This document shows positions 7,781 to 14,829 of a stretch of DNA of 32,000 nt, in pieces. The stretch is from assembly GCF_000195955.2 (NCBI RefSeq), contig NC_000962.3:2190001-2222000 (forward strand). The letters are read 5' to 3'. The stretch is from Mycobacterium tuberculosis H37Rv. GTDB taxonomy: Bacteria; Actinomycetota; Actinomycetes; Mycobacteriales; Mycobacteriaceae. Made by a program: the position numbers and the translations under genes. A model generated the notes under the pieces. It ran no database searches and was not told where the DNA came from. It saw only the letters and a program-made list of their open reading frames with translations. The stretch's first letter is position 1, and every line of letters starts with the position of its first letter.

Positions 7781-7858
7781 TGGGTGCGCCTGAGCGTGCG
7801 CCACGTGCTCGATGCGGGCGAAGCATTGGATGCCGGACAGATTGATTAGGTCTACCGC
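7781..7858. repeat. 78-bp direct repeat, copy B
   Basis: 82% identical to 5234-5311. Carries TAG (7847-7849) where copy A has GAG. Confidence 0.85.
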
Positions 7859-8627
7859 CACTTTCGGCAGGAAAAGGCACTGGACACACGCCACCGAGCC
7901 GGCCGTACCACCGTTGACACTCGGCATCAGCAACCCGGAAACAGCCGAACCCCTGATCATCTGGCCGACCTCGCCCCTGGCCGCACCGCGACCATCGGGC
8001 TGCGGGATTCCAGCTGCCTGCGCGTGGACCGCTACAACGACCAGGCGTCCGGGCGAGCGCTCATCGAGATCCGGTTGTGCAACGAACGTGCCACGCCGAT
8101 GCCAATCCCGATCGGGCTGTGGATGTTTCAGACCAAGCTCCACGTCAACGCCGGCGGCGCTGACGTGTTCCTGCCGGTCTGCGACGTGCTGGAGCAAGAC
8201 CTCGCCGAGCGCGACGAGGAGGTACGCCAGCTGAACCTGCAGTACCGCAACCGGTTGGAGTATGCGATCGGGCGGACTTGCTCGGCGGCCTGGTCGGTGA
8301 ACGGCTCGCGGCGCCCGTCGGCAGTGTGGACCACCTGGCTGCCGGTCGCCGAAACACCCCACACCCGGGCCCGGTCGGTGGAGAACGCGCTGTTGTCCAT
8401 GGACAGTCGCGGAGGGGTTACGTAGCGGACTGGCGTCGTTCGTCGCGGGATATGGAAGCTGGTTTCAGGGTCAGGCGGCTGTCGCGGCCGAGCTGCCCGA
8501 GCACCTGCACCCGACCGCCGACGAGAGGCTGGCTCATGTTGCGGCCGAAAAGGAAGCGCTGCGCTGCTTCCAGTTCATGAACCAGGTGATGCGCGATCAC
8601 CGTAAAAGCTTGTCAGAGGTGCAGTGA
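7850..8627 (+). pseudogene. internal fragment of a larger decayed gene (includes the Rv1947-like ORF 8024..8425)
   Basis: Frame 2 is open from 7850 to the stop at 8423-8425. Reading then continues in frame 3 (VAEGLRSGLASFVAGYGSWFQGQ...FQFMNQVMRDHRKSLSEVQ*) to 8625-8627, with about 77% GC3 by my count. No start codon at the 5' end. It ends abruptly where GC content drops. Confidence 0.5.
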
Positions 8628-8713
8628 ACACTGTTTCCATGACCAAGAGCAACGGGCACTGTTGAGACACAGCGCGTCGCCAACGGGCGCTGCCTGTGGC
8701 CGAACATCGTAAA

Positions 8714-9064
8714 TCAAGCATATTCGTCAACAGATATCATCAATGTCGGCGCCGGACTATTCAAATCATCGATATACTGGTGGCCTGGTCCTTCGCCATC
8801 GATCAATGGCGATAGCTTATCGAGGATTTCTACCAACTTCGTGTCATCGAAGCGCCATACAACGGTTTGCGATCCCAGTTCCATATCCGCAGTTCCGCTT
8901 TCTCGAACTATCCGTTGCTGTACACCATCTATGTCGAAAGTTGCCTGACCACTCTCATGGGCCGATCGCACGGCGTACTGGAAAATGCGAAGCCCATCCC
9001 GGTCTGCGGCCGCCAGAACCACGTCACCGAAGTAGTTATCCGGCTTGATACCGAAAACGGTCAT
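8714..9064 (-). CDS. candidate immunity protein (116 aa, acidic) of the upstream toxin-like gene
   Basis: ATG at 9064 lies inside track ORF 8714..9262, 10 nt after the stop of the upstream ORF (9075-9077). Low-GC region. No domain recognised; the call rests on context. Confidence 0.55.
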   Translation of the reverse strand: MTVFGIKPDNYFGDVVLAAADRDGLRIFQYAVRSAHESGQATFDIDGVQQRIVRESGTADMELGSQTVVWRFDDTKLVEILDKLSPLIDGEGPGHQYIDDLNSPAPTLMISVDEYA

Positions 9065-9074
9065 TCTGGTCCAA

Positions 9075-9977
9075 TCACTTGTGAGTCGGAAGGTCCCCGA
9101 TGGGAATATTCTGCCACCTGGCGGTCGGCGAATCGTGGGGGTTGTAATCCCAATGCGGATAGCGGTAATTGTCTCCCGGAAAATATCGCCACTCGCCGCC
9201 GTTCTCGTCCCAGAGGCTTTCGCCGCCGCGAGCCTGTTGGATAGGACGACTGGGCGGTCCAACCGTTAGGTTGCTCTCGGCGGGCGGGCTGACACCGGGC
9301 GGAGGTAAGCCTTCGTTCGGTTGTGGTCCAGCGGGGTCGGGAGCAGGAGGGGGTTCGCCTTCGACCGGCACGCCCAATTCGCCTAACCGGGCTCTGATTG
9401 CGGCTTGTCTTTCAAAGAGAGAACCCTTGTCCGCGATGCACGCGTCGTAGGCTGCCTGCTCGTTGGGCAGAACGAAGGTGCGTCCGCATCGGGCGTTGTA
9501 CCGAGCGATGTCAGCGTTGACGGCGTCCCAGGCTGCGCGTGCCTGTACGGCTGTCATGTCTTTCGGGTCGCCCGGCATCGGTGAGGGTGGATCTTGTTTC
9601 CAGCTGCGGTCGACCGCGTGGATTTGCGGTTTCTCGTTGTGGGGCACCGGTGTCGGTAGCGACGGTGCGATTGGGGGTTCGTGGAAGCCGACGGTGTTAA
9701 GGGGTGCGGTAGCGGTGGCTATTTTGGCGGCCACTTCGTGTTCGACTCCGATGAGTTGTGTCGCGCGTTGGCGGATATCCCCGGCCAATGCTTGTGCTTG
9801 GGCCTGGCGAGCTGCTTGTTCGGCGAAGGTGCGGCTGGTTCGGGTGTCGGTGACCGAGAGGTCCTCTTCGACGTTGAAGCCCGCGTTGTGGGCATCTTGA
9901 ACGGCATAGATGACCCTGCGCTGGGCTGCGCCGATGGTTCCGGCGCCTTCACGGGCAAGCCCACTCGCTTGGCGCAA
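9075..9977 (-). CDS. C-terminal 300 aa of a WXG-type polymorphic-toxin-like protein (cf. Rv1949c): helical region, Pro-rich linker, ~65-aa W/Y/H/D-rich tip
   Basis: Track ORF with TTG start. Linker PPPAPDPAGPQPNEGLPPPGVSPP. Tip GESLWDENGGEWRYFPGDNYRYPHWDYNPHDSPTARWQNIPIGDLPTHK. The frame is open upstream of the TTG back to 10036. Confidence 0.65.
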   Translation of the reverse strand: MRQASGLAREGAGTIGAAQRRVIYAVQDAHNAGFNVEEDLSVTDTRTSRTFAEQAARQAQAQALAGDIRQRATQLIGVEHEVAAKIATATAPLNTVGFHEPPIAPSLPTPVPHNEKPQIHAVDRSWKQDPPSPMPGDPKDMTAVQARAAWDAVNADIARYNARCGRTFVLPNEQAAYDACIADKGSLFERQAAIRARLGELGVPVEGEPPPAPDPAGPQPNEGLPPPGVSPPAESNLTVGPPSRPIQQARGGESLWDENGGEWRYFPGDNYRYPHWDYNPHDSPTARWQNIPIGDLPTHK

Positions 9978-9997
9978 ATGCTCGGCTATGCCACTGA

Positions 9998-13129: not shown

Positions 13130-13680
13130 CCAAACGAGGGTGAATCAAGCTGCCCGACGACCATGGTTTCCACACCTACCGCCAGATGCAGCGCTGGACT
13201 GTCAGCCCAGCGGCACGGGTCGAGATCCTGGGCCGCTACTGGTGGAGAATCCGCCGCCGTGCCACCGAAGGGGCGAAGGCGAAATCCAAAGGCAAGGCCC
13301 GCCGCGGCTCTCAGTTCAAGGTTCTCGAACACGGGTGATGCGGTTCGAGCCCGGGAAGGTGGAGCGTTAGCCGCAGGGGAGGGAATCTTGGCGGGTCGGC
13401 CGACAAGAGGTTGAACTTGACTGCGGGACAGCAGTTTACGGCTCTTGTCGCCACGCCTACAGCGGATTCGCATACCGCCGGGGTTCATTGACAACCGGCG
13501 GGGGTTCGTTCCGCCGTGTTTCCGAGGTAGGTATCGGCGGGGGTGTATGTCGGTAGGCCTCGGGAATGTCCGACAGGCGCGATGGGAGATCTTCGCGTTG
13601 ATCACCGCGCCAATGGATGGTGTCGGGATCATCCCCCGGCTGACGGGAAATGCGGCCGGCCATTCTTCCTCAAGATCGAG

Positions 13681-13977
13681 TCAGAGGTTCCGGTCGACGT
13701 CCATCCGTTGGTGCAGGACTCGCACGACGTCGATGGTGCCTTCGCCAGTCACCCGATAGAACAACGTGTGTGACCCGGCCGAGAGCTTGCGATAGCCGGG
13801 GCGAATCTCGTCGCACGCTCGTCCGATCCGCGGGTTTGCCGCAGCACGGTCGATAGCGTGTTGAAGTTCGCGCAGGTACTGCTCGGCCTGATCGACACCC
13901 CAACGGTCATAGGTGCAGTCCCAGATCTCTTCCAGATGTGCCTGCGCGGCAGGCGAGAGAAGGTATCGGCTACTCAC
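13681..13977 (-). CDS. parE1: ParE1 toxin (RelE/ParE fold)
   Basis: Track ORF of 98 aa. YLLSPAAQAHLEEIWDCTYDRWG...FYRV...IDVVRVLHQRMD is typical ParE. 4-nt overlap with parD1. Confidence 0.9.
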   Translation of the reverse strand: MSSRYLLSPAAQAHLEEIWDCTYDRWGVDQAEQYLRELQHAIDRAAANPRIGRACDEIRPGYRKLSAGSHTLFYRVTGEGTIDVVRVLHQRMDVDRNL

Positions 13978-14225
13978 CGGCCACGCGAGGCGTCAGCCCG
14001 CTTACGACCGAGGAATCCGTCGAAGTCGAACGGTGTCGAGCTGCCGCTGCGTTCGCCGGCCTCGAGAGCCTCACGAAGCGCGCGCAGCTGGGTTTCACGG
14101 TCCTCGAGCAGTCGCAACGCGGAGCGGATGACTTCACTGGCCGACCGGTAGCGGCCCGCGGCGATCTCGCCGTCGATGAAGGCGCTGTAGTGCTCGTCGA
14201 GGACGAAGGACGTGTTCTTACCCAC
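13974..14225 (-). CDS. parD1: ParD1 antitoxin (83 aa from GTG 14225)
   Basis: Inside track ORF 13974..14273. GKNTSFVLDEHYSAFIDGEIAAGRYRSASEVIRSALRLLE is a ParD/CopG-like RHH. Confidence 0.9.
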   Translation of the reverse strand: MGKNTSFVLDEHYSAFIDGEIAAGRYRSASEVIRSALRLLEDRETQLRALREALEAGERSGSSTPFDFDGFLGRKRADASRGR

Positions 14226-14235
14226 GAACGCACAA

Positions 14236-14250
14236 TACCAATTGTTGGTA
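14236..14250. promoter_or_regulatory. palindrome TACCAA-TTG-TTGGTA upstream of parD1, candidate ParD operator
   Basis: Perfect 6-bp arms with a 3-bp spacer, 11-25 nt upstream of the parD1 GTG. Confidence 0.45.
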
Positions 14251-14364
14251 GTAGGTGTTAGCCCCTGGGACACCCCAAGCCCCAGCGGCAGAATCTCCTG
14301 GGGATCGGCATGGCCGCACCAGGCGCGGCGCGCCCAGACATGTCAGAGGGTGAGGCGACACTGG

Positions 14365-14829
14365 ATGATCGACACCACCGAAGCGGCATATCGGCTGACG
14401 TATCAGCCGGACGGCACGTCGATCACCGTCCGGGAGAACCTGGTCGACATCCTGGCGCGTGAGCTGCTCGGCCCGATCCGCGGCCCGCAGGAGGTGTTGC
14501 CGTTCAGCCCGCGCTCGCAATACCTGGTCGGGCACCTCGCCCCGGTAAAGCTGACCGGCGCCGCGCTCATCGACGACAACGCGGTCCAGGCCCGTGCCAA
14601 CGCCGAGGCGCTCGCCGAGGGCGGTGGCGTGCCGGCCTACGCGGCCGACGAAACGACGCCGACACCGACGACGACGCCCAAGACCGCGCACCCAAGCAGG
14701 GCCTGATGATCCCGGCATCAATGGGTTTACGGTTTCAGGTGCCACCCGATCTGGTGTCGTTCACCATCACCGCGTCATGGATAACCTACGAGACCGTCGA
14801 GAGCGGGAGGTGACCAAGGCCGGCCGTAC
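14365..14829 (+). pseudogene. N-terminal fragment of a larger decayed gene (includes the Rv1961-like ORF), with frame changes
   Basis: ATG at 14365 with GAGG upstream. Frame 1 reads MIDTTEAAYRLTYQPDGTSITVRENLVDILARELLGPIRGPQEVLPFSPRSQYLVGHLAP... to 14706. It continues in frame 3 (DDDAQDRAPKQGLMIPASMGLRFQVPPDLVSFTITASWITYETVESGR*, stop 14810-14812), then frame 2 (EVTKAGRT). Confidence 0.5.

Follow-up and report, generated by a model that had tools for sequence, protein, structure and literature searches.

Swapped pieces of a dead DISARM helicase gene, drmA, bracket a toxin-antitoxin cluster in Mycobacterium tuberculosis H37Rv

How do two pieces of one gene come to lie in swapped order at opposite ends of a toxin-antitoxin (TA) cluster? 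The question is raised by a 32,000-nucleotide stretch of the Mycobacterium tuberculosis H37Rv chromosome, hereafter the window, which covers the M. tuberculosis genomic island that is rich in TA genes and includes higBA1/TAC (Sala et al. 2014, PMC3968373). The two open reading frames (ORFs) bracketing the TA cluster are abutting pieces of one dead gene, drmA, which encodes the helicase of the DISARM anti-phage system, and their order is swapped. In the literature that we found on the island and its ORFs, drmA of DISARM is not identified, and neither a permutation nor an 11-bp overlap is described; one of the ORFs concerned, of 164 amino acids (aa), is listed as "Rv1961", an interrupted coding sequence for a hypothetical protein of unknown function (PMC2277376).

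One drmA pseudogene in two pieces

The two pieces, the annotated ORFs that coincide with them, and the two copies of an 11-bp overlap denoted k are the following.

14365-14829, plus strand: drmA pseudogene, N-terminal piece (aa 1-171 of homologues), with two frameshifts, at ~14652-14691 and ~14810
7898-8603, plus strand: drmA pseudogene, internal piece (aa ~168-425), with one frameshift at ~8405-8420, identified by tblastn (P0001, P0003, P0006) and NCBIfam NF038325
14340-14829, plus strand: last codons of the methyltransferase gene drmMI, then the drmA N-terminal piece (start 14365)
8024-8425: annotated 133-aa ORF, inside the drmA internal piece
14212-14706: annotated 164-aa ORF, overlapped by the drmMI end and drmA N-terminal piece (14340-14829)
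7898-7908, plus strand: left copy of the 11-bp overlap (k), GCCGGCCGTAC, read A G R T
14819-14829, plus strand: right copy of the 11-bp overlap (k), the same 11-mer

A preliminary description of the window had taken the two fragments for halves of one decayed gene and had been reminded by them of the N-terminal region of a large defence-island helicase. Both impressions were right, as the two fragments fall into a single family, DISARM DrmA, with PADLOC and with NCBIfam. On the PADLOC DrmA profile, the right piece occupies positions 2-61 and the left piece positions 173-248. Pfam gave no match on either fragment, and the N-terminal region of DrmA is recognised by defence-specific and NCBIfam profiles only.

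A virtual protein fused at the 11-mer, with the right piece first, which is the junction that the preliminary description had proposed as a query for intact homologues, recovered 93 homologues; the top one aligned locally in one piece, at 66% identity and 97% coverage. Against NF038325 (DISARM_DrmAS, the short form), residues 22-390 of the virtual join matched positions 1-402 of the 1165-position profile in one stretch (E 2.5e-58). Its score of 197.9 bits stays below the full-length cut-off of 950 bits, as two thirds of the protein are missing here; P0001, an intact-length homologue fragment, scores 484 bits over positions 1-524. When P0001 was searched against the window with tblastn, its aa 10-111 fell at 14374-14652 and aa 126-165, in a changed frame, at 14691-14810, while aa 164-387 fell at 7883-8554 and aa 343-422, again in a changed frame, at 8406-8603. 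The fragments align to homologues in the virtual order only and never in the genomic order, which bears out the permutation. Identity ranks of the two pieces across 28 homologues were concordant (Spearman 0.70), with the same two best hits, and this concordance fits one source gene.

The left fragment had initially been drawn at 7850-8627. It is indeed an internal part of drmA, but its true extent is 7898-8603, and positions 7850-7897 are not drmA. A tblastn extension of P0003 into 7850-7897 was rejected, as it rests on 3/15 matching bases.

To place the arrangement among its relatives, we considered DISARM loci elsewhere. The class 1 operon order is drmD-drmMI-drmA-drmB-drmC. The M. marseillense locus (L011) runs from an SNF2 helicase (drmD) through a 1355-aa MmeI-like methylase (drmMI) to drmA. 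Operon context was seen in two metagenome contigs overall, one of them carrying a methyltransferase, drmA, drmB (DUF1998/MZB) and drmC (PLD), and the conjugative Nocardioides plasmid pNOCA01 is annotated with drmD, a DNA methyltransferase, drmA and drmB. A scan limited to a single genome for each species yielded 14 loci from other species. In all 14, drmA had its N-terminal and internal parts collinear and within ~1.24 kb of each other, and none was permuted, so the arrangement in the tubercle bacillus is derived.

Further traces of the same operon lie between the two pieces.

13153-13320, plus strand: remnant of the C-terminus of drmMI, the DISARM MmeI-like methyltransferase (aa ~1290-1345 of 1355; tblastn E 3e-17; 77% nucleotide identity to L011)
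8611-8654, plus strand: second, diverged joint of a drmMI stop and a drmA start (b), 84% over 44 nt to L011 9973-10016 by blastn

The drmMI remnant encodes HGFHTYRQMQRWTVSPAARVEIL...KGKARRG, and the fusion protein P0021 is a further basis for its identification. A start of this remnant at 13027, which would overlap the chaperone gene, was rejected; the alignment is convincing from 13153 only. The last drmMI codons follow at 14340-14368 (MSEGEATLD vs VSEGQGTLIP and stop) and overlap the drmA start as in intact operons. The right end of the interval has therefore kept the operon order of drmMI remnant, parDE1 and drmA start, with drmMI upstream of drmA as in class 1 DISARM and the parDE1 insertion alone between the remnant and the last codons. 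Joint b stands directly after the left drmA piece and reads LSEVQ-stop-TLFP-stop/MTKSNG, compared with VSEGQGTLIP-stop/MTETTEKPNG.

Little else of the system survives in the window. Of drmA itself there remain the first ~425 of ~1200 codons, with three frameshifts in all. Homology stops at 8603, ahead of the motif PTGGGKTEAY of P0001, and the superfamily 2 helicase core (Walker A, Helicase_C) is missing; tblastn with homologues and with the second half of the L012 drmA found nothing of drmA past aa ~425 in the window. Most of drmMI is also absent from the window, and tblastn with the L011 and L012 proteins for drmB (DUF1998/MZB), drmC (PLD) and drmD (SNF2) returned noise only (E > 0.4). The locus resembles class 1 DISARM in that the joined fragments match the N-terminal third of DrmA and an MmeI-like methylase remnant lies upstream in operon order, but its drmA is frameshifted, split and permuted, and the window lacks the helicase core as well as drmB, drmC and drmD; the locus is a fossil rather than a functioning system. 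The drmA gene is dead, and the DISARM parts do nothing today.

These assignments identify several annotated M. tuberculosis genes. A single drmA pseudogene accounts for both "hypothetical" ORFs, of 133 aa and 164 aa, each of which is one half of it. The 150-aa "lipoprotein" ORF, "lppG" (7508-7960, minus strand), straddles the left junction: its start lies antisense to drmA, and beyond the 11-mer it runs antisense to a decayed gene in the left flank. Its GC by codon position does not match a coding frame. The 204-aa annotated ORF (13018-13632, minus strand) is antisense to the methylase remnant. These four ORFs are either pieces of pseudogenes or by-products; the 150-aa and 204-aa ones look like the latter. 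An anti-phage DISARM system was once present in the tubercle bacillus lineage and has since decayed.

The 11-bp overlap at the breakpoints

The 11-mer GCCGGCCGTAC has exactly two copies in the window, both on the plus strand and 6921 bp apart, precisely where the preliminary description had placed them. That description had also cautioned that exact 11-mers recur by chance, and rightly so, since we counted 432 maximal exact direct-repeat pairs of at least 11 nt in the window. The 11-mer pair alone carries no meaning; the part that is not chance is the position of the pair. At a background density of ~8e-7 11-mer pairs per position pair, a chance pair in register at both breakpoints is expected ~1e-5 to 1e-4 times.

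Homology changes from one fragment to the other exactly at the 11-mer, and the DNA outside each copy is unrelated to drmA. The geometry is as had been described, with the 11-mer and the internal part at the left end and the N-terminal part and the 11-mer at the right end. Homologous proteins read ...TYETVQTDKVTKAGRPIRHYQR... or ...TASWGTYETVQTDKVTKAGRPIRHYQRVPVEE... across the joint, and the 11-mer encodes their conserved KAGR(P/T). On the right, the sequence after a 1-nt frameshift reads REVTKAGRT and then becomes unrelated to drmA. On the left, unrelated sequence comes first and is followed by AGRTTVDTRHQQ. We rejected a continuation of right-fragment homology beyond the 11-mer, for which the sole resemblance is the 7-mer CCAGCGC and indels are needed.

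The DNA of 12 homologues reads ...GTCACCAAGGCCGGCCGCCCGATC... or ...GTCACCAAGGCCGGCCGCCCGATCCGC... at the joint. None of the 12 has the exact 11-mer, and 11 of them lack the derived CGTAC of both window copies (most have CG(N)CC). A single homologue, from Ca. M. methanotrophicum (L024), has AGRTV at the joint and matches the left copy, which indicates that the left copy is drmA straight through the 11-mer. Given that the same homologue codons lie at both 11-mers, both copies go back to one and the same set of ancestral drmA codons; the fragments share these 11 bp, and no sequence is missing between them. A permuted order with 11 bp shared and no loss is characteristic of a single break or crossover in a molecule that carried drmA uninterrupted and was closed into a circle by the rest of the segment.

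The age of the junction can be bounded from M. canettii. Its 150-aa LppG ORF differs by one substitution, while the N-terminus, whose coding sequence spans the left junction, is identical. The 133-aa and 164-aa ORFs (Rv1947 and Rv1961) are present in M. canettii too, the latter with the same frameshifted tail. These ORFs imply that the left junction and at least one frameshift predate the split between M. canettii and the M. tuberculosis complex. The junction provides a dated structural marker, older than that split, for the assembly of the TA-rich island in or around a defence locus.

Integration of a circle or rearrangement in place

The explanations below draw on four neighbouring features.

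5905-7353, plus strand: REP13E12-family gene (Pfam DUF222 E 5e-111, HNH E 5e-5)
7426-7897, plus strand: left flank P, a decayed plus-strand gene remnant, not drmA; weakly DUF433-like at ~7500-7650 (E 6e-4), with a stop at 7847-7849
8655-8815, no strand assigned: 161-bp segment, comprising the 3' end of a 182-aa ORF and downstream DNA, which begins exactly where the drmA-derived DNA (joint b) ends
14830-15549, minus strand: right flank Q, with a 36-bp spacer, vapC35 (14866-15273) and vapB35 (15277-15549); PIN and PhdYeFM matches

Two halves that are swapped on the same strand and split at one point require either a circular topology or an interchange of adjacent blocks. Judging from the sequence, we lean towards the integration of circular DNA at a point inside its own drmA, which we consider somewhat probable. 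The circle would have carried the 3' end of drmMI, parDE1, the 5' third of drmA and TA genes. It would have joined the chromosome in a spacer of ~96 bp between two convergent gene ends, those of the decayed DUF433-like gene and vapC35. The former is recognised by its GC per codon position, and the vapBC35 of flank Q is convergent with it; joining the flanks virtually gives the ~96-bp spacer, and the predicted empty site is short and intergenic.

The joining itself may have been a Campbell-type reciprocal crossover at the 11 identical bp, or else the circle may have broken with an 11-nt stagger, followed by fill-in and end-joining. The outcome would be flank-k-drmA'(internal) ... 6.2 kb ... drmA'(N-terminal)-k-flank. 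A single crossover between circle and chromosome accounts for both outer joints and the 11-bp duplication together. By the Campbell route, the empty site would read ...CACGCCACCGA-GCCGGCCGTAC-GATAGCCAGC..., with one 11-mer. The staggered-break route would look alike but leave an empty site without the 11-mer. The circular joint would read ...GGTGACCAAGGCCGGCCGTACCACCGTTGAC....

Several features are consistent with a circle. An exact 11-bp repeat lies precisely at both homology breakpoints, in the place of the terminal direct repeats of an integrated element. Moreover, parDE1 and vapBC14 have relatives with 79-87% nucleotide identity on mycobacterial plasmids, and a conjugative plasmid of actinobacteria carries DISARM. 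In flank P, a terminator-like hairpin (7892-7876, minus strand) does not discriminate between models.

Known modes of integration offer partial parallels. The Myxococcus phage Mx8 reportedly carries attP within intP, and its integration is said to alter the 3' end of the gene. Campbell-type integration of this kind resembles the present case in its short direct end repeats, in an own gene split with the downstream part left and the upstream part right, and in the unrelated DNA outside. It differs in that here there is no integrase, the core is of 11 bp only, the split gene is a defence helicase, and empty site and circle are unobserved. In mycobacteria, circular DNA can also undergo illegitimate integration through microhomology or end-joining (Ku/LigD pathway). 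This route needs no integrase, and a short identity or a filled stagger at both joints would yield the duplication seen here, although 11 bp is at the long end for microhomology.

The prophage-like element phiRv1 is a third comparison. REP13E12 repeats are its integration target, according to Bibb and Hatfull 2002 as cited in PMC9317374, and a REP13E12 copy lies ~0.5 kb left of the left junction. However, the 11-mer is ~470-510 bp past the end of the repeat homology with the other REP13E12 copy, which ends at ~7388-7425 by comparison with the recombinant loci L041 and L042. The phiRv1 attB presumably lies inside the REP13E12 repeat.

A number of observations weigh against the integration of a circle. 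No empty site was found by four search routes. Exact look-ups of VapC35 and of the SEC-C protein returned M. tuberculosis-complex contigs only, all with the island (e.g., CP002095, ~2.18 Mb, same gene order), and a homology search with flank P returned only sequences derived from the M. tuberculosis complex, three of them error-rich contigs of one assembly. VapC35 homologues in other mycobacteria (77-89% identity) are not syntenic with the window, and past the stop codon their sequences have nothing in common with it. A contig scan for drmA loci gave the normal order only, with none from close relatives. In M. canettii itself, no empty site is expected, as the left junction is already present there. 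Pfam on the ORFs and precomputed gene tables revealed no integrase (as the preliminary description had stated), transposase, transfer or replication gene in the window, where the sole recombinase-type candidate is the DUF222-HNH gene outside the repeats. ARAGORN detected no tRNA or tmRNA target in the window.

The proposed core and the interval it bounds raise further difficulties. Eleven bp is short for a dedicated att core, and there is no sign that the target carried the 11-mer. The interval is a mosaic with at least three further unexplained joints, at drmA codon ~425 and the second drmMI end, at 8655, and between TAC and the drmMI remnant. Finally, the 161 bp that open the supposed cargo are REP13E12-associated, and only 1.27 kb to their left, outside the repeats, lies a REP13E12 copy; with a foreign circle, this association is difficult to put down to coincidence.

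This segment recurs 144 bp past the end of the other REP13E12 copy (Rv1148c-type flank, mmpL13/Rv1147 side; L042 8207-8402, reverse). By blastn against L041 and L042, the match comprises 129 nt at 96-97%, preceded by 32 nt at 81%. The two occurrences of the segment share their left boundary and differ in their left neighbour. These two loci, L041 (FPUX01000003) and L042 (VOGJ01000006), are recombinants of the present REP13E12 copy with the copy beside mmpL13, and they reveal the native 3' flank of the latter. The segment may be the terminus of a separate mobile module (the toxin cassette) inserted later, or a former neighbour of REP13E12 at this locus, with k-drmA'-b brought in between them by a local rearrangement. 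Because it recurs beside another REP13E12 copy and starts exactly where the drmA DNA ends, local rearrangement is a serious rival to integration.

The main rival, which we hold to be unlikely although well short of implausible, is a swap of blocks within the chromosome, without any foreign circle. The ancestral order would have been REP13E12-flank P-[8655 segment, toxin cassette, vapBC14, TAC, drmMI', parDE1, drmA 1-167]-k-drmA 172-425-b-vapC35, and one three-breakpoint event would have moved the 757-bp k-a-b left of the 8655 segment, which is equivalent to moving a 6.2-kb block to the right. A staggered break at k with end-joining or replication template switching could have done so, with the 11 bp doubled by fill-in or microhomology. 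Such a swap keeps the natural drmMI'-drmA order with a single rearrangement and dispenses with an integrase, a replicon and a pre-existing 11-mer in the target. It also draws on the recombination of REP13E12 copies in M. tuberculosis-complex strains (L041 and L042) and on the 161-bp segment, whose position by the other REP13E12 end, with the same left boundary, suggests that segment and repeat were formerly neighbours here. On the other hand, three simultaneous breaks or several steps are required. Comparison of 7370-8670, flank P included, with the spacer at the other REP13E12 locus gave no similarity, the score being within the shuffled null, which leaves the former adjacency of P and the 8655 segment unsupported, and a shared segment boundary with different neighbours fits the terminus of a separate mobile module equally well.

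The remaining explanations are less probable still. It is in our view quite improbable that the whole segment was duplicated in tandem and that two deletions then independently removed the left copy up to the 11-mer and the right copy from the 11-mer on. The 8654/8655 joint could be the duplication junction, and joint b shows that the drmA region was duplicated here, but three events are needed rather than one or two, and the deletion ends must coincide by chance within 11 bp, without loss and with exact identity, for which the chance is ~0.3-0.6% in a ~3.5-kb gene. Scarcely any weight falls on the pieces coming from two drmA copies, that is, from two DISARM elements truncated independently, with the 11-mer shared as a conserved motif. 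Joint b also shows that more than one copy of the region existed, KAGRP is conserved in the family, and nucleotide identity to the M. marseillense drmA differs between the left (80.6%) and right (73.2%) pieces. Against this stand the lack of the exact 11-mer in all 12 homologues while both window copies share the derived CGTAC, the agreement of identity ranks between the pieces, and the improbability of independent truncations at the same 11 bp. Pure coincidence, in which a chance 11-mer pair meets two unrelated decayed ORFs, could appeal to the abundance of direct pairs in the window and to boundaries chosen post hoc. It is refuted, for practical purposes, by the ORFs being abutting parts of the same gene with the 11-mer on the same homologue codons in both.

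Integration of a circle can be extended to the origin of the island. The TA cluster (TAC, vapBC14 and parDE1) might be the stripped relic of a plasmid-like circle, or one like an integrative and conjugative element, that had a complete DISARM and entered the ancestor of M. canettii and M. tuberculosis via its own drmA. We regard this extension as rather improbable. If it were true, at least part of the pathogen's TA expansion would have come as addiction or defence cargo of one episome. In a bolder form, the 11-bp core may still be used, and the 6.9-kb segment may be able to excise as a circle. The origin of the island becomes testable, as an empty site in outgroups can be set against a natural-order gene. 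The locus is a decayed defence locus with an integration or rearrangement scar, and it represents no new type of system or mechanism.

Cargo, flanks and related loci

Gene names in this text (Rv1945, lppG, Rv1947, vapBC14, TAC, parDE1, vapBC35 and mce3R) follow the H37Rv map, together with PMC3968373. The cargo between the repeats, apart from the features given above, is as follows.

8714-10603, minus strand: ORFs of a low-GC toxin cassette (182, 300, 63 and 137 aa), no family match
10714-11249, plus strand: vapB14/vapC14-like pair (FitA-like RHH match; 87% nucleotide identity to M. avium plasmids)
11584-13129, plus strand: higB-higA-chaperone (TAC) cassette (Gp49 and HTH_3 matches; names from PMC3968373)
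13321-14339, minus strand: parDE1 cassette, genes at 13681-14273 (ParD_antitoxin/ParE_toxin; 79% nucleotide identity to mycobacterial plasmid parDE)

Everything between the repeats had at first been taken for TA cargo. Type II TA genes are present, as paired small genes with toxin and antitoxin domains (vapBC, higBA-chaperone and parDE), but the interval also holds the drmMI remnant, the second drmMI/drmA joint and the 161-bp REP13E12-linked segment. The toxin cassette, vapBC14 and TAC sit between joint b and the drmMI remnant. The parDE1 cassette is a clean insertion ~10 codons ahead of the drmMI stop: the remnant to its left ends ...KGKARRG and the one to its right begins MSEGEATLD, which in L011 are contiguous as ...KGKAGRGRNVSEGQGTLIP, followed by the stop.

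Within the vapB14/vapC14-like pair, the 103-aa vapC14-like ORF (10938-11249) has no PIN match on record, and its similarity to plasmid vapBC ends at ~11160, which suggests a truncated or altered toxin, as far as its sequence indicates. GC content falls to 0.54 at 8500-9000, the left end of the toxin cassette, compared with 0.62-0.67 around it, and in composition no other part of the interval is as foreign. In an uncultured Mycobacterium (L026 5929-7222), homologues of the 63-aa and 300-aa cassette ORFs (42-51% identity) occur a few kb downstream of a fragmented drmA, the sole other co-occurrence of the toxin cassette with DISARM that we saw.

Left of the island, the two copies of a 78-nt direct repeat (5234-5311 and 7781-7858; 82% identity) enclose three genes or gene remnants: SEC-C, REP13E12 and the DUF433-like remnant. 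The second copy ends 39 bp ahead of the left 11-mer, and both copies read W(I/V)RL..R.VLD.GE.L.AG.ID on the plus strand. In the M. tuberculosis-complex loci L041 and L042, the Rv1141c-Rv1147 region is joined via a hybrid REP13E12 to the SEC-C/mazEF5 side. This joint implies recombination between the two REP13E12 copies, probably a large inversion, or else a misassembly.

Contigs of ~3.8 kb from one assembly (L028-L030; GCA_017879105.1, >100,000 contigs) are collinear with the window at only 84-91% identity and contain hundreds of gaps; contamination, in the form of uncorrected long reads from tubercle-bacillus DNA, is the apparent explanation. A 6321-bp Logan contig encodes a 227-aa protein (P0080) that combines the first 78 residues of the drmA N-terminal piece with the C-terminus of a short-chain dehydrogenase (PF13561/PF00106), either a strain-specific rearrangement or an assembly chimera.

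Foreign genes occupy the short gap from the 3' end of drmMI to the start of drmA in three DISARM loci that are unrelated to one another: parDE1 in the window (13321-14339), three genes including one of the YfbU family in pNOCA01 (L013 9229-11781), and a resolvase in L045 (7380-9320). The last of these, which has the closest relative of the right fragment, is an ordinary decaying DISARM locus. Beside its resolvase lies an inverted duplicate of the C-terminal part of the methylase, which looks like an invertible (phase-variable) methylase.

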